Assembly: GCA_031266915.1 (NCBI GenBank)
Contig: JAISAB010000001.1
Location: 37,994-101,993 of the forward strand
Source: Rickettsiales bacterium
GTDB lineage: Bacteria; Pseudomonadota; Alphaproteobacteria; Rs-D84
Reading direction: 5' to 3'
Length of the DNA stretch: 64,000 nt
The notes beneath the pieces were generated by a model that had not been told where the DNA came from, ran no database searches, and worked only from the letters and a program-made list of their open reading frames with translations. A program made the translations under genes and the position numbers. Below, one piece after another: positions 52,946-64,000 of the stretch (its first letter is position 1; each line of letters opens with the position of its first letter).

Positions 52946-53532
52946 AATATTTCGGATTACGATTCACGAAAAAAATCGCGCCCGTTGGGCGCGATACTTT
53001 AAATACAAGGGATTCCCATCTTCATGGGAATTTCCTTACTTTTTCTTAAAACCCTGTTTCGCCTTGAATTTGGGATTGTCTGGGTCAATAAGAATAACTT
53101 GTTTGCCGCGGCGAATCTGTTTTACATTGCCGCGCTTTTTCCAAGCCTTCAAAGAACTTAAGAACTTCATGTCATATTCCTTTTTGCCATGCGATTATAA
53201 CCGCTTTTTATAAGAAATCAACCAAAACTTCTAATAATAGTTTAATATTCGCTATACATTCAACCGTTATATGAAATTTCAATTTCTTATTAATATATTG
53301 TTGTTGTTTTTATACAGGTTAAAATTGTTAAAAACGCTTTTAATTTTTTTATCAACTGATTTTCAACAAAAAAAGCCGGTGTTTTCGCGCCTGTTTATAA
53401 AAATGTTAAAAAATATCGCCGGTAATCAACAGTTGAAAAACATATAAGTTTCCGGCTTTTTCAACAAATTTTTCAGATTTGTTTTTATGCTTGTTGAAAA
53501 ATGTTGAAATTGTTATAATTAACCCGTACCGA

Positions 53533-53844
53533 ATGGAGACGAGAGAATTGCGGCAACAAGTCCTGAAAGCTTTGGCGAACCCATCGCGCATATTTTATGT
53601 GCCCTATACGCTGGCGGTTTTAAATTTCGTGCTGCAGTTTCTGGTATTCATCGTCATTTTCATAGGCGGTCTGATAATTTCCGGCGGCGGCGTGGGAATA
53701 AACCCTCTGGCGTTTTTAATATCCGTGATGGCGGTTCATTCGATTTTGGCCGGCTTTTCCAAACGAGAGCCTCAGCTGGCGCAGATTATCGCGGCCAAAT
53801 TGCGCCTATTTAAATCGCGCGCCCCGAACAAGTTGACGGCATGA
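53533..53844 (+). CDS. virB3: Type IV secretion system protein VirB3-like
   Basis: ~104 aa; IFYVPYTLAVLNFVLQFLVFIVIF ... VMAVHSILAGFSKREPQLAQI fits the VirB3 pattern; immediately upstream of virB4. Confidence 0.6.
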   Translation: METRELRQQVLKALANPSRIFYVPYTLAVLNFVLQFLVFIVIFIGGLIISGGGVGINPLAFLISVMAVHSILAGFSKREPQLAQIIAAKLRLFKSRAPNKLTA

Positions 53845-53845
53845 T

Positions 53846-56254
53846 ATGAATCAATTCTTGGAATATTTTATCACTGGGGGATTTTCGATGACATCGGTCA
53901 TTCTGGCCATGGCCGTCGTTTTCGTGTTCATTATCCTGATGTTGTACGTTCCTACAATCGCGCTGTGGATTTTCCCAAAGTTCGGATACAAGAAATATTC
54001 TCAATACCTGCCGTTCGCGACGGTGTTCACGGACAATTCGATTCAGCTGACCGACGGGTCCTTGATAAGGGCTTATAAAATCGACGGTGTTCAAACCAGC
54101 ATGCAGGACGAGAAAACCCGCAACCAATTCCTGGATTTGCGCGCACAGCTGTTCAACCAAATCAACGACCCCGGCGTTACCCTGCGCTTTTACACAATTC
54201 GCGATTTCGCGGCCGATAAGACTGATTACGAATTCGACGGGCCGACGCTGCAGAAAATTTACGACAAGTGGAACAGCCAGGGGTTGAAGATTTTCACGAA
54301 CAGCTATTATGTGGTTCTGTCGGTTGGCGGGTCGAACGCCAGAGAAAAGCTGAACCAGTACGGCAACTATATCGAATCCATACTGGCCGCGTACGGACCC
54401 AGCGTTCTGGACAACGCGCGCCCGGAAAATATGGCGAAATTGTTCGCCCGAATCCTATCGCCGATCACCAAGCCGCGGCCTGCACGGTGCGACCAAAGAA
54501 TCGCGGAAACAATAACCGTCGACGATGTGGAATTTCTGGGCAACGGACTGATCCGGTATTCCAGCGGCGCCAAAAAATCGTACGCCGCGACCGTATCGTT
54601 CAAGGTGTCCCCGGATTATCTGGACGAGGAATTCTTCAACACCGTGTCCACCATCCAATGCGAGATGATAACCATGAACGGATTCCGCATTATGGGCGCG
54701 GCCGATATAGGCAACGTCATCCGCCAACGGCGCGCCACGTCCGATAATAACGACGACGCGGCCGAGGAACAAATCCGCGACGCGCAATCCGCGATGGACG
54801 AGAACGCGGCCGGCACGCAGACGCTGCTGAACTATTACCCGCTGTTCGTTCTGTTCGGCGACACGGTCGAATCTCTGCAGGACGGCGTCGACGAATTCAA
54901 AAAGATTTCGGCGGCTTTCGGCATATCGCCGGTTGTGGAAAACTTTGCGTCCAAGGTTTCGTGGTTCTCGCAGATTCCTGGATTCGACGTGTTTCCGCGC
55001 AGTTTCAAAATGCTGTCGAAAACAGCCGCGGTCAGCATACCAATGTCATCGACGCCCAAAGGCGTCGCGAATTCAGACTGGGGTCCGGGCCCGCTGGTCG
55101 TATTTCCGACAGCCCAGGGAACGCCGTATATGTTCCAATTCCACGTATCCGCCGCGCCCGCGGCCGTGGGCCATACGCTGACGGTCGGCCCGACGGGCGG
55201 CGGAAAAACGACGCTGTTCTCGTTCCTGATAGCGCAATCGCTGCGACATCCGAAATTAAAGGCTTTCTTTTTCGACCGGAACAAGGGCGCCGAAATCTTC
55301 ACGCTGTCGGTCGGCGGAAAATACGTGACCATGCAGAACAAGGAAAAATCCGCCGGCATGGGATTCGAGGCGCATTTGAATCCACTGAAGATGGAGGACA
55401 GTGTCGCCAACCGCGCGTTCCTGCGCCGATGGCTCGCGATGATTTCGGGGCAGTCCGACACGCGTTCCGCGGACGAAATCGCACGCGCGGTATCCGTCAA
55501 TTTCGATTACTTGGGCGACAAGGACCGGATGTTGAAAAGCCTATGGGAAAGCTGCTTTTCGTCCGAGGGCAATATGCGCGGCGCGCTGAAAAAATGGGTC
55601 GACCCGCTGCAATACGGCGAAATATTCAATGAAACCGCCGATACGCTGGATTTGCAGTCGCGTCTGACCACGTTCGATTTTACCGAAATTCTGCAGGACC
55701 AGACATTGTCGCCGGCCGTGATTTCATACATCCTGCACCGGATAAACAACACGACCGTGTCGGGCGGAAATCCGTCGCTGATTATGATTGACGAAACGGC
55801 GCCGATGCTGGAAAACAAGATGTTCCGCGACAACTTTATCGTCGGCCTGCAAGAGGGCCGCAAAAACCGCCAGGCCTATATGGTGGCCTTTCAGCGCGCG
55901 AACGTGCTGGACAAGCTGGGTATCGGCGACGTGGTGCGCGGCCAGGCGCAGACGGTTTTATTCTTCCGCAATCCGGCGGCCGACGCGAACGATTACCAGT
56001 ACTGGAATCTCAATCCCTTGGAAATGGCGTTCATCCAGGGCAAGGCTTATCCGAACCTGAAGCGCGCGGTGCTGCTCTCGCGCCCGGTAAATGGCGAATC
56101 AGTGATTCTGAATACGGAGCTCGGCGGATTGGGCAGTTTGCTGCGCCTGTTCGAATCCGGCCGCTCCAGCGTGCTTTTGGCCGAAGAGCTGTACAGGCAG
56201 TACGGGAATAATTTCGTCGGCGAATACTTGCGCAAACAGGGCGCGGTGGAATAA
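53846..56254 (+). CDS. virB4: Type IV secretion system ATPase VirB4
   Basis: 802 aa; Walker A TVGPTGGGKTTLFSFL; Walker B LIMIDETAPML; N-terminal TM region. Confidence 0.9.
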   Translation: MNQFLEYFITGGFSMTSVILAMAVVFVFIILMLYVPTIALWIFPKFGYKKYSQYLPFATVFTDNSIQLTDGSLIRAYKIDGVQTSMQDEKTRNQFLDLRAQLFNQINDPGVTLRFYTIRDFAADKTDYEFDGPTLQKIYDKWNSQGLKIFTNSYYVVLSVGGSNAREKLNQYGNYIESILAAYGPSVLDNARPENMAKLFARILSPITKPRPARCDQRIAETITVDDVEFLGNGLIRYSSGAKKSYAATVSFKVSPDYLDEEFFNTVSTIQCEMITMNGFRIMGAADIGNVIRQRRATSDNNDDAAEEQIRDAQSAMDENAAGTQTLLNYYPLFVLFGDTVESLQDGVDEFKKISAAFGISPVVENFASKVSWFSQIPGFDVFPRSFKMLSKTAAVSIPMSSTPKGVANSDWGPGPLVVFPTAQGTPYMFQFHVSAAPAAVGHTLTVGPTGGGKTTLFSFLIAQSLRHPKLKAFFFDRNKGAEIFTLSVGGKYVTMQNKEKSAGMGFEAHLNPLKMEDSVANRAFLRRWLAMISGQSDTRSADEIARAVSVNFDYLGDKDRMLKSLWESCFSSEGNMRGALKKWVDPLQYGEIFNETADTLDLQSRLTTFDFTEILQDQTLSPAVISYILHRINNTTVSGGNPSLIMIDETAPMLENKMFRDNFIVGLQEGRKNRQAYMVAFQRANVLDKLGIGDVVRGQAQTVLFFRNPAADANDYQYWNLNPLEMAFIQGKAYPNLKRAVLLSRPVNGESVILNTELGGLGSLLRLFESGRSSVLLAEELYRQYGNNFVGEYLRKQGAVE

Positions 56255-56940
56255 TGTTCAAGGTTCAAAGTTCAAAGTTCAAAGAATTGTCGCGCCGGCG
56301 ATTGCCTGTATTGAAGTTCAATCTTTTATATATATATCTTATCTCGTATCTCGTATCTGGTATCTCATACGCGGACGATTGTCTGCCTTATAAATTAAAT
56401 CCTGAAATCGAGGTATTGACGCCGTCCTGGCACAAGGAGGTTGTCCAGCCGCTGAAACCTATGGAATTGTTGGACGGGCTGCATGGAAACGTAGTGGCCA
56501 CATTGGATAACGATTATGAGGTAACGGGCGACACGACGTCCGTCGAGGACGGTTTCTGCGTTTCGCTGAAATCGGTATCGGCGACCATCGGGTACAGCGG
56601 ATTCCAGGTCGGGATAGATTCGCGCCATGCGCCGGAATCATGCGTATACAACGCGATTTTAACGCACGAGGACGAACATATACGGGCCTATCTGTCGGTG
56701 ATAGACGATTACAGTGACGATATTCGGACGGCGGTCCGCGCGGCGGCGAACTCGGTCATGCCGATTTTCGTCCGAACCGGGACAGAGGCAGAATCGGCCC
56801 TTGATTCGCTGCACGACAGCCTGCAAAGCCATCCGGAATTGATTCTGATGAACCAGCGCATCCAGGCCGAACAGGAAATTAGAAACAAGCGCGTGGACCA
56901 GGTCGAAACCGGCAGTCATCTTAAGATGTGTATGGAATAA
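56254..56940 (+). CDS. Hypothetical secreted protein with HExxH motif (LTHEDEHIRAY) downstream of virB4
   Basis: 228 aa; the N-terminal 40 codons are built from family K (gttcaaggttcaaagttcaaa) and tatctcgtatct repeats; the true start may lie downstream. Confidence 0.4.
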   Translation: MFKVQSSKFKELSRRRLPVLKFNLLYIYLISYLVSGISYADDCLPYKLNPEIEVLTPSWHKEVVQPLKPMELLDGLHGNVVATLDNDYEVTGDTTSVEDGFCVSLKSVSATIGYSGFQVGIDSRHAPESCVYNAILTHEDEHIRAYLSVIDDYSDDIRTAVRAAANSVMPIFVRTGTEAESALDSLHDSLQSHPELILMNQRIQAEQEIRNKRVDQVETGSHLKMCME

Positions 56941-57061
56941 ATATTATATTATGTATAAATGGTCAGATTCTTTAGAGAATAACAACAATGTATTCAACAG
57001 TTGGTTGAATGTTTTTTAGAAATAGGTTCTTGTAACAATATGAATAAAAATGAGCCGTTTT

Positions 57062-60061
57062 TTATCCAATTTCTTTCATTATGTTATCGGTTTCCAACAA
57101 GATAGCGATTATCTTTTGGTAGTGAATAACGTCTTCAAATGACAATGTGCGGCCACGGCGGTCTTTCAACCACTTTTGCGCCGGCTGATAGCCGCCGATA
57201 AAAAATTCCCATGCAGTATCCGGCACATTATCAAAATATTGGGTTTTGTTTATATAAACTCGGTTGCCATCTCGTACAACCTTTTCAACAGTGTCATCTC
57301 CGGATATAGGATAGGTACAGGTTGTCGCGGGGACAAATTCCATCAGGTGCAGCTTTCGCAGGCGTTCGCCCAGTTTTGCCAGTCGTTCAAATTCTTTGAC
57401 ATCTTTCGGATATGGAATCTTTGGAAAATCTATTTTTAGAAATTCACGATATTTTTCCCGATATGACGGACTGTGCAGCACCGCATAAATATAATCAAAT
57501 ATTTCAACAGCATCTGCATCACGCCCGATGGATTTAGATATTTGATTTACTATACGCTGGTCCAAGTTTGATTCCGGCCGTTCGCCAAAGTATGTATATA
57601 ACGGAAATATAACATATGAAGCAAAAGGCTGAGATGATATTTCAGATAATTTGTCAGTTATAAAAGATATAAAATGTTTTTTAGCGCCAAATTGACGAGT
57701 CGCTATTAAAGCAATGTTTGGCTTTAACATATGTTGCATGACGCTATATCTGTGTCTGACAACTTTATCCAAATCATAATTTATCCATCTGGTATCAAAT
57801 GGTCTGTAAGAAATTTTTTGGTTAAACTTGGTATCAAATGCATTAAAAGAAATCAATTCAGAATCATTATGTGTTTTTATACCGGTCGTGTTTATTTGAA
57901 ACAAATCTGTCAAAGAAAACCCATTATCATACACGTTTCTTTCTGATAAGTCTTTGTCCACAAAAAAGCAATACGGTTCAATCGGTTTTAGCTCTTTATA
58001 TTTTGTTGAGTCTAAATCATTCTTGCTTAAAAAGTCGTATTTCTCATTGCGTTTTCCATAAATATCATTATAAAAAACCTTGCCTAGAGTTTTCTTTTTA
58101 TCCAATGTTTTTATAAATATATTGATGGACACACCCTGCATAATATCAAACACGTTTTCATCCTTGCCGCCGTCCGGTATGGTTTCGCCAATATTTGAAT
58201 TCCCGTGTAAATTTAATATATAAATTTTATCGAATGTTTCCATCAGCGATTTGCGCATCTGACGATGTATCACGCCGTCAAGAAAACTATTGTTTGTGAT
58301 AAACGCCAGTATTCCGGAACCGTTCTTTTCTATAAAGTTCTGACCCAGCGCAATAAACTTTATATAATCATCCGAAAGCGGCTGAATATTTCTCTCGTTT
58401 AAGTCTTCTTTGTATTTTTTAATCAAATGCTTGGCATAATCGTTATTGTTCGAGCTGCTGACGCTATACGGCGGATTTCCTATCACGCACATCACCGGAG
58501 TATCTTGTTTGATAGTATTCGCCTCGCGCGCTTCGTTGGACAGCCACTGGGCAAAGAAAAGCGTCTGTGTGTTCGGGTCGGCTTCTTCAAGGCTGTTGGT
58601 CAGATATACCCCCAAGCGTTGAGTTGAGTTTTTTATCACGGCATTCTTGCCGATATCGGCCAATTTATTATCAAACAAATCATCTTGCCGGAACATCTTT
58701 TCATTAATTGGCGCATCGTCCTGAATATATCCGGTTTCGCGTAATACCAAGTCTAACTTCAAATGTGCCATGGCATAACTGGCCATCAATAATTCAAACC
58801 CATGAATGCGCGGCAACAAATGCTCATCAACGTACTTTGTCCAAAGCCCGGTATTGTTTTCAAAACTCTTGTGTATAAAGCGAATTGTTTCGGCCAAAAA
58901 AGTTCCGGTTCCGGTCGCGGGGTCAAGAACCTGAACGCGATGAAATTCTTTGTCTATCGGCTTATTCGTGCCTTGGGTGTTTGTCTTCTTGATAATTTTT
59001 GAATTATCGGCCAATCCCAAAGGCAATTCAAAGTCTGTCTTTAATATATTGTCAACCGCGCGGACTATATAATCAACCACAGGTTGCGGGGTATAGAAAA
59101 CGCCACGGCTTTTCCGCAAAGCCGGATTGTATTCAGCAAGGAACGTCTCATAGAAATGTATAATAGGGTCGCTTGTTTTTGTCTTGCGTCCAAAGTCGCG
59201 CATAATATCCGCAACATCTGTGTACGAGAAAATCTCGGCAAGGTTATCAACCACCAAAACAATTCGTTCATCTATTTCCGTGCCGGCGATATATCCGAAT
59301 AAATTACGCAAAAATGGATTTGTTTTCGGTATAAGGCTTGCGGCTTCAACGCGTGTAAAAGTGCTTAGCGACTTATCATGTAAACGAGCCGCAAACATTC
59401 CATAGGCTATAGTTTGCGCATACACGTCGGCAAATTCGCTGGTGGTTATATCATGTATCAGCATTTCTTGGAAGACTGTCATTTGCTCGCGCAGTGATGA
59501 ATTACTCTTACCGTCTTTTTCCAAAGCCTCATTGATAACGTTGGCAACCAGTTTTGCTTTGCCGGCCATCAATTCGGCCAGTCTTGACGCAGATTTAATG
59601 GTTGTGGTTTTCTTGATATAAAAATCACGTAGCAAATTTTCCAAGAAATCATAGTGTTCTGGTATCGGCGTAATTGTTTTGCTGTCAAAATCGGCAATTC
59701 TTACGCGTTTAAAAACAATGCCGCTTTTATAAAAGATAAAATCAAAGTAATCCGTATAAATTAAATTATCAAATCCGTTGCGATAGCGTTCCAACTGGTC
59801 TTTTTCATACCCGTGCAGGTTATCAAGGCGAGACACGCCGATACCTTTAGTTTCAATATATCCAACAGCAACGTCTTTAAGTTTTATTACGAAATCCGGT
59901 GCACCGAAAGTCCCGCGAGTCGGCTCGTTTATAGCAATTATGTCCGGGTTTAAAGATTCCAGCAATTTCTTCAGATGCGGACGATATGTATGTTCATTCG
60001 CTTCGCCTGTTTTCCATTCCCGTTCAATCGCAGAGATATAGTTTGTAAATAACTGTGACAT
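57062..60061 (-). CDS. Type IIG restriction-modification enzyme (MmeI-like: N-terminal PD-ExK nuclease fused to N6-adenine methyltransferase and TRD)
   Basis: 999 aa; PDFVIKL...GYIETKGIG aligns with MmeI D..WPGILLIEMKSRG; FYTPQPVVDYIV resembles AHYTSE; GNPPY catalytic motif; AT-rich. Confidence 0.75.
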   Translation of the reverse strand: MSQLFTNYISAIEREWKTGEANEHTYRPHLKKLLESLNPDIIAINEPTRGTFGAPDFVIKLKDVAVGYIETKGIGVSRLDNLHGYEKDQLERYRNGFDNLIYTDYFDFIFYKSGIVFKRVRIADFDSKTITPIPEHYDFLENLLRDFYIKKTTTIKSASRLAELMAGKAKLVANVINEALEKDGKSNSSLREQMTVFQEMLIHDITTSEFADVYAQTIAYGMFAARLHDKSLSTFTRVEAASLIPKTNPFLRNLFGYIAGTEIDERIVLVVDNLAEIFSYTDVADIMRDFGRKTKTSDPIIHFYETFLAEYNPALRKSRGVFYTPQPVVDYIVRAVDNILKTDFELPLGLADNSKIIKKTNTQGTNKPIDKEFHRVQVLDPATGTGTFLAETIRFIHKSFENNTGLWTKYVDEHLLPRIHGFELLMASYAMAHLKLDLVLRETGYIQDDAPINEKMFRQDDLFDNKLADIGKNAVIKNSTQRLGVYLTNSLEEADPNTQTLFFAQWLSNEAREANTIKQDTPVMCVIGNPPYSVSSSNNNDYAKHLIKKYKEDLNERNIQPLSDDYIKFIALGQNFIEKNGSGILAFITNNSFLDGVIHRQMRKSLMETFDKIYILNLHGNSNIGETIPDGGKDENVFDIMQGVSINIFIKTLDKKKTLGKVFYNDIYGKRNEKYDFLSKNDLDSTKYKELKPIEPYCFFVDKDLSERNVYDNGFSLTDLFQINTTGIKTHNDSELISFNAFDTKFNQKISYRPFDTRWINYDLDKVVRHRYSVMQHMLKPNIALIATRQFGAKKHFISFITDKLSEISSQPFASYVIFPLYTYFGERPESNLDQRIVNQISKSIGRDADAVEIFDYIYAVLHSPSYREKYREFLKIDFPKIPYPKDVKEFERLAKLGERLRKLHLMEFVPATTCTYPISGDDTVEKVVRDGNRVYINKTQYFDNVPDTAWEFFIGGYQPAQKWLKDRRGRTLSFEDVIHYQKIIAILLETDNIMKEIG

Positions 60062-60848
60062 TCTTGCGTCCTATTTTATATTATTCCTAGTATAGCACTA
60101 ATAAATGGCATAAAACAAGTTTTTATAGGGTTTAAAGAATATCAGATTTTTCGCTTATCATCTTTTTTTGCGGAATTAAAGGCGTGTCAGACTATTGTTG
60201 CCGCGATATAATCCGGCGATGTAAACATTTCTAGATGCCATCTGGAACGAAAGTGCAAAAATGAGTTTTCCATAAAGCATAATTTTGAAGTGGATGCAGA
60301 GCCATCAATCAACGAACTAAACGAATCCAAAGGCCTTTTTAAAGCATTGGAAGATTATAAAATAAAAGTATCTAAAGATAACCCAGTTTTTTTAGTATCC
60401 TGCGCTTGAATTTGCAAAATTAAAAAACTCTCTATAATTACATAGAACTAAATTTGGTTGTTCGCAATAGACAAAGTTCTAACCAACCATGTGTACGAGT
60501 TGGTAGATTTTATAAACCAGTAAAATCCCTTTCGGGAACTGTTATCTATCGAGCACAATGAACTAATATCTATAGCCACCAGAAACCGTAATTAATAGCA
60601 ATAATCTACCTCAAACATCCAATTTTTACCCAAACCTTGATAATAACACCAATTTTCACTCCCAAGGCTTTCAGACCTTTTGTTTCGTTTATAACCTATT
60701 AATATTTCTTAGTAATCTTAAATAACAATTGATTTTATGCAGATTGTAGGATATTGTAAAATTAATAAAGCGCGGTGGCAAATAACCAAAATTGGTAGCA
60801 AAAAGCACCCGTGGTAGCAAATAGGTAGAAAAAAAATGAAAAGGTAAT

Positions 60849-61646
60849 GTGTCAGAAAAGGCAATGAAAATGGAATATAAATTAAAAAATAGATATAAGG
60901 CCGATTTAGAAAAACAACTAAATAGATTATGTTGTCATACCATGGAGGCGGTGGTTGATTTAGAGATGTTTTTTTATCCTTTGCGAGATCCCAGCGTACA
61001 TAATGATAGCTTTGCATTTAAACATTCTTTAGATATATTTTTTGAGAGAGCTCTCTTGTCTATAAGAAAGCTCGTAGAGCCGTCACAGAAAAATGACAAA
61101 GCAACTTTGAATTCAATAGGCAAGATAATCTTGCAGCCTGATTTTTACTTGATCCCAGATGAGGATTCAGATTGGACAGATGTTTTAAGAACAGTGGGAA
61201 GAGCAGAAGAAGTTATAGACCTTGCACAAAGGCATGCAGAGAAGTTTTTTCAAAAAAACTATGGGGATGCATTGCAAAAATTATCCAAAAATATTATGGC
61301 CTTTTTAAACTCAGAACAAGCGTTGCGAATAAAAGACTATAGAGATTATTCTTGTCACATATTATTGAACAAGCCAAAAAGCGTTTCATTTGAAATTTAT
61401 GATAATATGTCCAATACTCTAAACAAAACAGTCGATTTTTTATCAAGATTACATGATTTTGTCTTTGATGAAAAAGCAGACTTCTTTAAACAAATAGCCA
61501 TTTTAGCCCCCGTGCTTGCTGAAAATTACTGGAAAACCATCAACGAAGGGGCAAAATTGGTTGAAAATAAAAAACAAGAAAGAGAAACCTTAGCAGAGAT
61601 TTTAAAGAGAGCATCTAATAATTCTGGGGTAAGAAATAACCAATAA
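60849..61646 (+). CDS. Hypothetical island protein with candidate HEPN-type Rx4H motif (RDYSCH)
   Basis: 265 aa, predicted all-helical; preceded by TGGYAGCAAA direct repeats at 60770-60830; no family confidently recognised. Confidence 0.4.
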   Translation: MSEKAMKMEYKLKNRYKADLEKQLNRLCCHTMEAVVDLEMFFYPLRDPSVHNDSFAFKHSLDIFFERALLSIRKLVEPSQKNDKATLNSIGKIILQPDFYLIPDEDSDWTDVLRTVGRAEEVIDLAQRHAEKFFQKNYGDALQKLSKNIMAFLNSEQALRIKDYRDYSCHILLNKPKSVSFEIYDNMSNTLNKTVDFLSRLHDFVFDEKADFFKQIAILAPVLAENYWKTINEGAKLVENKKQERETLAEILKRASNNSGVRNNQ

Positions 61647-61668
61647 AATCAACTTTACCGAACGTGTA

Positions 61669-62803
61669 TTGGAAAATATGCCAGTTCCGACTGATAAACA
61701 GACTGTATATTACGACAGTGGCAGTAAAGATGGCCTGTGTGTCATCGTGACATATGGTGGGGCAAAGACTTATTATGCTTACATGAAGTTCCAAGGTGTC
61801 CCAAAACGTATCAAAATTGGTCGTATGGGACAAATTAAACTGATCAAAGCACGCGAAATTGCACATAGCCTTAAAGAACATCAACCCTTGGCTAAGATCC
61901 CAGCGCAAAGCGTAAAGAAGATTTAAAAGACATAACATTAAAGCAGTTTTACGAAACGGCTTATAAACCGGAGTATTCTTTGTTGTACAAAAAGTCGGGG
62001 TCAGTGGCAAATGATGACAGTTTGTTTAATCACAGGCTGAAAGATTTTTAAAACAGGCGGTTATTAAGCATAAAATCGGAGGAGATTGAAAAACTACATA
62101 ATAAAACAAAGAAAGAGTTATCTCCATACACAGCAAATCGCGTTTTGTCATTGATAAAACATGTTTATGTAATTGCTATAAAGCACGGCCACATCCGCAG
62201 AGATGCAAATCCGGCAGAATTAATCCGTAAATTTCCAGAGGCTAGCCGCGATCGATTCTTAAAATCAGATGAAATGAAACGATTTTTTGATGCGCTTACG
62301 GTCGAAGATAACCCAGTGTTTAAAAACTATATATTATTGTCGTTGTTTACAGGTCAACGCCGCAATAATGTGTTGACGATGCGCTGGGATAACATAGACC
62401 TTAAGAATGTTTTATTTACTTTCCTGACTCCAAGAATGGCGAACCGCCGCAAGTTCCCATGACAACACAGGTAAAAGAACTGCTGGGATCAATGGAACAC
62501 GATTCTGACAGCGAATGGGTATTGCCAAGCAAAAAGTCCGCTAGCGGACACCTTGAAGACCCAAAACGTCCATGGCAAGATCTGTTGGCGCGCGCCGGTA
62601 TAGAAAACCTGCGCCTACATGATTTACGGCGCACACAGGGCAGCTATCAGGCTATTACTGGTTCCAGCTTACATATCATCGGAAAGTCCCTAGGACATAA
62701 ATCGCCCAGCGCAACAGAGTTGTATTCTAGACTAACCACCGATCCAATCCGCGAATCTATGCAACGCGCTACTGATAAAATGTTAGAGTTTACGGAAGGC
62801 TAA
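61669..62803 (+). pseudogene. Frameshifted/interrupted P4-type tyrosine integrase
   Basis: Three collinear fragments: N-terminal arm-binding (DUF4102-like, 61669-61926), core-binding (62145-62462), catalytic (62459-62803; HDLRRT ... ELYSRL). The 61927-62144 gap translates as integrase in another frame. Confidence 0.7.
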
Positions 62804-63010
62804 CAATTATTAAGGCAGGCTATATTATGTATTAAATTACTCGAAGTAGTTGATATCTGATAAGAAGATGATAAACTTCATGCAAAAATGAAGGAATGGC
62901 AAATGGCAGTTCGTATTGATATAAATAATAACAGCGAGGCTTTGGACTATGATTTAAGGAAGTATTTTCAATCTGGTAAGCTCAACTTTCTAATTGGATA
63001 AGGCGCATCT

Positions 63011-63967
63011 ATGCCGGCCATATCAGCAGGTGGCAATATAGAAAATGAATTAAAAGAGTTGGCAAGCGACCCTGAGCAGAGCAATGAATACGAGAAAAAA
63101 CTCTATGGATTTTTGGCTGGGGTTCAGAAAGCCCAAAACGATATTATAGCGGGAAGTTTTATTGATGGCGCAGGAGCAAACAATACGGGTAATACGCTAT
63201 CAAATTATGAGAAATTTATAACTACCATCGTATCACTTTTACTGGCCAGGAATAACCCTATCATTCTAAAGCGAATGAACATATTTTCGACAAATTATGA
63301 TATGTTTATTGAGAAGGCTGTTGAAGAAGTTTCGCCACTACATGTAAATGACGGTTTTGTTGGGAGTTGTAGAATTGATGCGAAATTTCCATTCTCGACG
63401 CACACATTTTCTAATTGTATGCATAATGCCGGAGATTATTACAAAACATATATACCGACAATCAACATAATAAAATTACACGGTTCATTGTCATGGCAAT
63501 CGAATGAGGTGGGTAAAATTTTCTTTGGTAATAATTCGTTACCAGAACTTTCGAATGATGACATTAATGATTTAGACACATTGAAAGAACGTAATAAAAA
63601 GTACAGCAATATAATTATTCCAACTTTGAAAAAATTTGAAGATACTGTCCTTATGCAAACATATTACGATTTACTACGGATATATTCAAACGAGCTAGAT
63701 AAAGAGAATAGCGTTATGTTTGTATTTGGTTTTTCATTCAATGATGAACGCATTTTAGAGATCACAAAACGGGCATTAAAAAACACTACTCTTGAAGTCA
63801 TCATCTTTGCTTATGGCGCTGCTGAAGTTGCAGATTTTGAAAGAAAGTTTACTGGGTTTCAAAATGTGAAAATTGTTTATGATTCAGCAAATGATGCAAA
63901 TATTAGTTTTGAGCGGTTGAACTCAATCTTTTCAGATATAAAACCAGCAGAAGGCCAAGATGTCTAA
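63011..63967 (+). CDS. SIR2-like (SIR2_2 family) protein, probable NAD+-depleting defense effector
   Basis: 318 aa; DGAGAN, IFSTNYDMFIE, IIKLHGSLSW, FVFGFSFNDERI match ThsA/DSR-type SIR2 motifs (GAGxS, TTNYD..LE, KLHGS, hFIGYSxxD). Confidence 0.65.
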   Translation: MPAISAGGNIENELKELASDPEQSNEYEKKLYGFLAGVQKAQNDIIAGSFIDGAGANNTGNTLSNYEKFITTIVSLLLARNNPIILKRMNIFSTNYDMFIEKAVEEVSPLHVNDGFVGSCRIDAKFPFSTHTFSNCMHNAGDYYKTYIPTINIIKLHGSLSWQSNEVGKIFFGNNSLPELSNDDINDLDTLKERNKKYSNIIIPTLKKFEDTVLMQTYYDLLRIYSNELDKENSVMFVFGFSFNDERILEITKRALKNTTLEVIIFAYGAAEVADFERKFTGFQNVKIVYDSANDANISFERLNSIFSDIKPAEGQDV

Positions 63968-64000
63968 TTTGGAAAAAATTGTTCAGCAAAACACAATCCT
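63960..64000 (+). CDS. Partial gene (MSNLEKIVQQNTI...) overlapping the SIR2 stop by 8 nt; truncated by the window edge
   Basis: ATG at 63960 in the +1 frame relative to the SIR2 stop; translational coupling implied. Confidence 0.3.
   Translation, partial: MSNLEKIVQQNTI

Follow-up and report, generated by a model that had tools for sequence, protein, structure and literature searches.

The window, a stretch of 64,000 nt from a Rickettsiales bacterium contig, ends in two overlapping genes on the + strand, of which the first encodes a SIR2-like protein and the second a HerA-type ATPase. An earlier note on this DNA had described the first as a SIR2-like gene, and a 318-aa ORF is indeed called in the window at 63011..63967 (+ strand). 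Its product matched the Pfam SIR2_2 profile (E=4.9e-11; 43.3 bits, cut-off 24.5), the HMM result on which the note had staked its assignment. The ORF is 100% identical to NCBI protein P0001, named 'SIR2 family protein', which carries no pseudogene flag in the NCBI annotation. The next ORF starts at ATG 63960 (MSNLEKIVQQNTI...), and the sir2 stop codon is TAA 63965-63967, so that the two ORFs share 63960-63967 (ATGTCTAA), the 8-nt overlap that had been noted before. Only the start of this second gene (63960..64000, + strand) lies in the window; the gene runs past the window end and encodes a 620-aa protein.

A tyrosine integrase gene upstream of sir2 (61669..62803, + strand) is decayed, as had been claimed: Pfam recognized three fragments in three frames. 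These fragments correspond to Arm-DNA-bind_3 at 61669-61926 and to positions 2-56 and 79-169 of the Phage_integrase profile at 62145-62462 and 62459-62803, respectively. Further upstream, a type IIG (MmeI / type ISP-like) restriction-methyltransferase of 999 aa is encoded intact on the − strand at 57062-60061. It matched PADLOC PDLC03610 with E=8.7e-288, as well as Pfam Type_ISP_C, Eco57I and N6_Mtase, and is a second defence gene on the same low-GC island. Between the restriction enzyme and the integrase remnant lies a near-orphan ORF of 265 aa (60849-61646, + strand; 258 aa from the first ATG), in the stretch of lowest GC content (34%). It had no match in Pfam, NCBIfam, PADLOC or PHROGs, and an exhaustive HMMER search of 1.84 billion representatives returned just 12 relatives with E<=1e-3; the best of them other than the ORF itself is 42% identical.

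The GC content is ~53% in the window up to ~56 kb and 34-43% from there onward, a drop that fits a gain of the block comprising the restriction enzyme, the integrase and sir2-herA by horizontal transfer. The low-GC island begins directly after a block of type IV secretion genes on the + strand, VirB3-like (53479-53844) and VirB4/TrbE-like (53846-56254), and a 228-aa ORF (56254-56940, + strand) that overlaps the VirB4/TrbE-like gene and had no family match. The sir2-herA pair is cargo of a decayed integrative element adjoining these type IV secretion genes. A scan for promoters and terminators yielded nothing over background (9 found versus 5.9 ± 2.2 expected).

The HerA partner

The earlier note had proposed that the partner be identified by obtaining downstream sequence and running an HMM search. 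A Logan contig, L001 (run SRR14710922), corresponds to window positions 54897-64000 with 0 mismatches over 9104 bp and adds 511 bp beyond the window. The extended ORF comprised 184 aa of the partner, up to the Walker A motif FGNTGSGKSN, and matched the PADLOC HerA model PDLC04097 (3.7e-56) and Pfam DUF87. The full partner was found with a chimeric query that joined the target N-terminus to the C-terminus of a related locus, L002; the 184-aa query gave short proteins only. The protein recovered, P0245, is annotated as 'MAG: ATP-binding protein [Rickettsiales bacterium]' and has 620 aa, of which the first 184 are those of the L001 extension. The HerA sequence past residue 184 was taken from this public record.

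According to the profile searches, P0245 matched PDLC04097 over positions 3-612/618 (E=3.1e-196) and Pfam DUF87 (3.6e-18). It fits the HerA-family ATPase expected of a SIR2-HerA system, which has an N-terminal β-barrel, Walker A, Walker B and an arginine finger. In an alignment of 120 sequences, P0245 keeps every invariant column, including the motifs GNTGSGKS of Walker A (K182), D483-E484-A485-H486 of Walker B, and S526-Q527-R528-P529. Compared by sequence with the PDB, it was closest to HerA chains from the SIR2-HerA complexes of S. aureus, Paenibacillus and E. coli. On this basis the partner is an intact HerA ATPase and the pair a canonical SIR2-HerA abortive-infection module, neither Thoeris nor a new system. 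Among the partners that had been entertained, the SIR2-HerA option was therefore borne out, and the Thoeris-like option and that of a novel partner are excluded.

P0245 deviates at 29 of the columns that are >=90% conserved, versus a mean of 4.8. The suggestion that HerA is also decaying was dropped: the sister proteins of loci L075 and L076 show 23 and 29 such deviations, and a Tajima test was not significant. The impression of decay is an artefact of a homologue set biased by the chimeric query. A search of a phage genome collection returned no close HerA homologue, only terminase-like matches with 25-27% identity.

The sir2 reading frame and its nonsense codon

The sir2 frame runs upstream of 63011 to ATG 62903, with the translation MAVRIDINNNSEALDYDLRKYFQSGKLNFLIG*GASMPAISAGG.... 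A TAA codon on the + strand at 62999..63001 interrupts the frame inside ...KLNFLIG*GASMPAI..., where it stands in place of Ser33 in the G-S-G-A-S NAD-binding loop. The gene is accordingly divided into a 5′ segment (62903..62998, + strand; codons 1-32) and, in frame with it, a 3′ segment (63011..63967, + strand; codons 37-354 plus the TAA stop). A Shine-Dalgarno sequence, GAAGGAA, is found 6 nt 5′ of ATG 62903.

The homologues agree with the longer frame. All 119 (325-382 aa) start ~36 residues ahead of the annotated Met, with 'MA...', and none starts at the Met37 position. The PADLOC 'SIR2' model PDLC04080 matched the 318-aa ORF at 2.4e-80 over profile positions 36-341 only; the stop-masked 354-aa product matched the same model at E=5.5e-92 over positions 1-341/347. 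Because the frame, the homologue starts and the profile coverage all extend upstream, ATG 63011 is the internal Met37 of ...GSGAS-M-PAI... and no start codon, and ATG 62903, overlooked in the earlier note, is the true start. The target does not have the uninterrupted N-terminal helix, β1 strand and GxGxS loop of a full-length SIR2.

In the alignment, position 33 is Ser in 109 of the 119 homologues and Ala in the other 10; the flanking G32 and G34 do not vary among the 120 sequences. Ser is encoded by TCA in 22, TCG in 21, TCT in 11 and TCC in 7 of the 61 related SIR2 ORFs with a recognized motif. We infer that the TAA at Ser33 arose through one C>A change, from TCA to TAA. Recoding of the TAA was ruled out, as TAA also serves as the terminal stop of sir2 itself and of an integrase fragment. 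The identical TAA is present in L001, in which the gene caller reports the N-terminal piece as a separate 32-aa gene. This second assembly excludes an assembler error. A strain polymorphism, as minority or majority variant, could still account for the stop, because the reads of SRR14710922 may be the same as those behind the MAG.

The 3′ segment retains the catalytic residues N131, D133 and H193, which lie in invariant columns of the alignment. N131 and H193 align with N226 and H287 of SaSir2 (PMC11514289), and the three residues fit the N163/D165/H212 pattern of PsSIR2 (PMC11472057). The segment also carries two substitutions that are unique to the target lineage. At the site of R154G, 115 of 119 homologues have Arg. 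H283R replaces a His found in 119 of 119 homologues as well as in SaSir2 (DEH) and EcSir2 (DYH). The occurrence of these substitutions at conserved sites suggests that constraint has already been lost.

We examined the N-terminal region in an AlphaFold model of P0002, the closest relative, which is 63% identical to the target and numbered alike at the N-terminus. The model (pLDDT 92, pTM 0.92) comprises a strand at residues 3-6, helix α1 at 11-24, the Rossmann strand β1 at 26-31 and the GSGAS turn at 32-36. All of these elements precede Met37, and a product begun at Met37 would lack α1, β1 and the turn. In sirtuins, the GxGxS loop after β1 binds the phosphates of NAD+. Translation from ATG 63011 may well yield such a protein, as the Shine-Dalgarno-like sequence AAGG lies 7 nt ahead of this codon.

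In SaSir2, T48 of the GSGCST loop touches the adenine of ADPR, helix α1 is clamped by the β3-β4 hairpin of HerA, and deletion of residues 1-34 abolishes NADase activity (PMC11514289). In the Paenibacillus system, defence is lost when the catalytic residues of either protein are mutated (PMC11472057). Since the Met37 product would be without α1, β1 and the phosphate-binding loop, the NADase of the target is probably inactive, and with it the defence is probably dead or dying; the homologues behind this prediction are only ~20% identical to the target. The earlier view that the SIR2_2 motifs are intact holds for N131, D133 and H193 and fails for the GxGxS loop, which the TAA splits off, and for R154G and H283R. 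The associated proposal of a likely active product is unsupported, given the nonsense codon at Ser33 and the two radical substitutions at conserved sites.

Related loci and known SIR2-HerA systems

Metagenome contigs were scanned with the HerA N-terminus, yielding 73 related loci, none more than 67% identical; together with the target's L001, 74 loci were compared. In 72 of the 74 loci herA is directly preceded by a SIR2 gene on its own strand, usually with an overlap, and in the other two the upstream sequence is absent. The commonest junction is a 4-nt overlap (44 loci), and intact HerA proteins of the related loci have 601-639 aa. The target has the same operon layout, with herA following sir2 at once on one strand and the ORFs overlapping. 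Its 8-nt overlap is shared only with the closest clade, the sister loci L075, L076 and L077, and takes the place of the commoner 4 nt. The L075 proteins are 63% (SIR2) and 71% (HerA) identical to those of the target, and the L076/L077 proteins 54% and 70%. The sister loci (L075 1-5300, L076 7400-14282 and L077 5900-10900) adjoin genes for a terminase large subunit, DUF5681, a ParB-N6_N4 methyltransferase and T5orf172, and the L076/L077 pairs also adjoin the defence-type genes KAP NTPase, NERD and PLD. These phage-like and defence-type neighbours suggest that the L075-L077 clade travels on prophages or defence islands.

Short or split genes occur among the related metagenomic loci, affecting SIR2 in 5 of 64 and HerA in 6 of 56. 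Disrupted SIR2-HerA copies appear common, at ~10% of these loci, a count that metagenome assembly errors may inflate. Examples of split or truncated SIR2 or HerA are L064 8103-9145, L070 1647-3717, L016, L035, L047, L061 and L009.

The sub-family defined by PDLC04080 and PDLC04097 is also carried by E. coli IncF conjugative plasmids, as WP_024232765 (SIR2, 39% identical to the target) and WP_044863035 (HerA, 48% identical). The target matches both profiles over their full length. The pair on the IncF plasmid NZ_CP027311 has similar sizes (~350 and 600-620 aa), the same gene order and overlapping ORFs; unlike this sub-family, the target has the nonsense codon at Ser33, R154G and H283R. A literature search for WP_024232765 and WP_044863035 was empty, and we found no experimental work on the PDLC04080/PDLC04097 sub-family.

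In a PDB search with the P0002 model, ranks 1-38 were all SIR2 subunits of SIR2-HerA complexes from E. coli, S. aureus or Paenibacillus (E ~1e-15, TM ~0.6, 16-20% identity). ThsA, DSR2 and Avs5 ranked after these 38 chains. The best structural match was the SIR2 of the E. coli Nezha / SIR2-HerA system (8J4U, 8SU9, 8SUB; Foldseek E ~3e-15, TM 0.63), and the Nezha HerA matched the target HerA in sequence (8e-24). The two-gene layout is the same, and the intact relatives of the target presumably share the Nezha mechanism, in which a SIR2 dodecamer on a HerA hexamer depletes NAD+. Nezha nevertheless belongs to a different sub-lineage, with only ~18-20% identity to the target and a longer SIR2 of 415 aa.

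The best PDB sequence match was SaSir2-HerA of S. aureus (8YHX/8YHO; PMC11514289), at 2.7e-12 for SIR2 and 2.1e-29 for HerA. SaSir2 aligns with the target at the GSGxS loop, the TNYD asparagine, the KxHGS histidine and the DEH motif. It is distant and longer (428 aa), and the target is without an intact N-terminus, the region whose deletion kills the SaSir2 NADase. The system of Paenibacillus sp. 453MF (8WLD; PMC11472057) resembles the target in its N/D/H catalytic triad and its overlapping ORFs, although its overlap is 26 nt, and its defence requires both genes (PMC11472057). Identity to the target is ~16-18%, and the Paenibacillus HerA, of 696 aa, has an extra arm domain. The target scored far under the cut-offs of the NCBIfam models SIR2_antiphage (82.6 vs 500) and HerA_antiphage (152 vs 800). 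By these equivalog scores it belongs to a sub-lineage distinct from the structurally studied SIR2-HerA systems, yet squarely within the family.

Thoeris ThsA and DSR2, like the target family, are NADases of SIR2 fold that defend by depleting NAD+. Their structural matches to the P0002 model were much weaker (E 1e-7 to 1e-5). Unlike them, the target has neither a SLOG nor a sensor domain, and its partner is not a TIR protein.

State of the defence system

In the published model of intact SIR2-HerA systems, an autoinhibited SIR2 dodecamer docks on a HerA hexamer; docking involves the N-terminal helix and large domain of SIR2 and the N-terminal β-barrel of HerA. The trigger differs by subtype, being a drop in ATP or phage SSB-type signals. 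Infection frees the NADase and the ATPase and nuclease/nickase activities of HerA, NAD+ collapses and the cell is arrested (PMC11514289, PMC11472057, PMC13434337).

In the reading that we favour, with a probability of roughly 75%, the locus is a canonical SIR2-HerA module on a low-GC island in which a recent stop at Ser33 has left the defence dead or dying and herA intact. The low-GC integrative island would have brought sir2-herA along with the type IIG restriction-modification enzyme, the module consisting of a 354-codon sir2 (62903-63967) followed by a 620-codon herA with an 8-nt overlap. In the present copy, a single-base change would then have introduced the stop at Ser33 of the GSGAS loop. 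At most, ribosomes may reinitiate at Met37 (ATG 63011), 9 nt after the TAA, and the resulting product would be without the HerA-contacting α1, the Rossmann β1 and the phosphate-binding loop. NADase activity and defence would be lost, with herA still intact.

The age of the lesion bears on this reading. In Tajima relative-rate tests against the sister lineage, SIR2 showed 32 versus 33 unique changes, with no acceleration, and HerA 43 versus 51 (chi-square 0.68, not significant). Because neither gene has a raised substitution rate and the 318 codons downstream of the stop are still open, we infer that the nonsense mutation is recent.

The same openness of the frame and lack of rate acceleration could be taken to mean that the system still functions, the stop at Ser33 being a polymorphism or consensus artefact, or being overcome through reinitiation at Met37 or reassembly of the 32-aa and 318-aa pieces with HerA. 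The retained catalytic triad, the intact herA with every invariant residue, the AAGG ahead of ATG 63011 and the preserved overlap, which permits coupled translation, all fit a working system, and NCBI annotates the 318-aa product as a normal protein. Against this stand the recurrence of the stop in two assemblies, the loss of β1 and of the invariant G32/G34 loop from the truncated product, and the abolition of NADase activity by the N-terminal deletion of SaSir2 (PMC11514289). The two conserved-site substitutions, which suggest that constraint is already lost, and the lack of any homologue that starts at the Met37 position count against it as well. We regard continued function as unlikely, but to be reckoned with.

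There is a slim chance that the locus works in an altered form, either with a Met37-start or two-piece SIR2 acting with HerA, or through HerA alone as an unrepressed nuclease/ATPase defence. If true, this would make the target a naturally split or SIR2-independent variant of the SIR2-HerA sub-lineage. The specific proposal that SIR2 is dead and that HerA keeps a SIR2-independent nuclease/nickase or ATPase role, as a remodelled one-protein defence, draws on the conservation of all invariant residues in HerA and on its evolution at the rate of the sister lineage. In addition, the HerA nickase of the E. coli type III Sir2-HerA is repressed by Sir2 (PMC13434337). A very recent lesion would, however, account for the normal rate just as well; moreover, characterized systems require both proteins for defence (PMC11472057), and SIR2 is always directly upstream in the related loci that have upstream sequence. 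A one-protein defence is very improbable.

Practically no weight can be given to the idea of a Thoeris-like or DSR-like system, or of a new SIR2 system whose partner has yet to be described: the resemblance is confined to the shared SIR2 domain, with ThsA and DSR2 as distant structural matches, while the partner is HerA (E=3e-196), the 354-aa single-domain SIR2 has neither the SLOG domain of Thoeris (SIR2-SLOG ThsA with TIR ThsB) nor the large C-terminal sensor domain of the single ~1000-aa DSR1/DSR2 proteins, and the closest structures are the SIR2 chains of SIR2-HerA complexes.

The favoured reading, a recently inactivated SIR2-HerA module, qualifies the description in the earlier note of a system that is no longer mobile but is retained. 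Retention is doubtful in view of the nonsense codon and the conserved-site substitutions in sir2. Decay seems to affect the island as a whole, even though herA and the neighbouring type IIG gene remain intact. We speculate that, if the host is intracellular, relaxed selection on phage defence would fit this pattern.

The locus is thus probably a further, freshly pseudogenized instance of an already known system, SIR2-HerA, for which several solved structures and dedicated PADLOC and NCBIfam models exist. Defence-system finders would likely score it as a complete SIR2-HerA despite the truncated gene, a reminder that dead copies enter the tallies of defence systems in MAGs. With its decayed integrase, broken sir2 and intact herA and type IIG genes, the island would offer a snapshot of a costly abortive-infection system in early decay.
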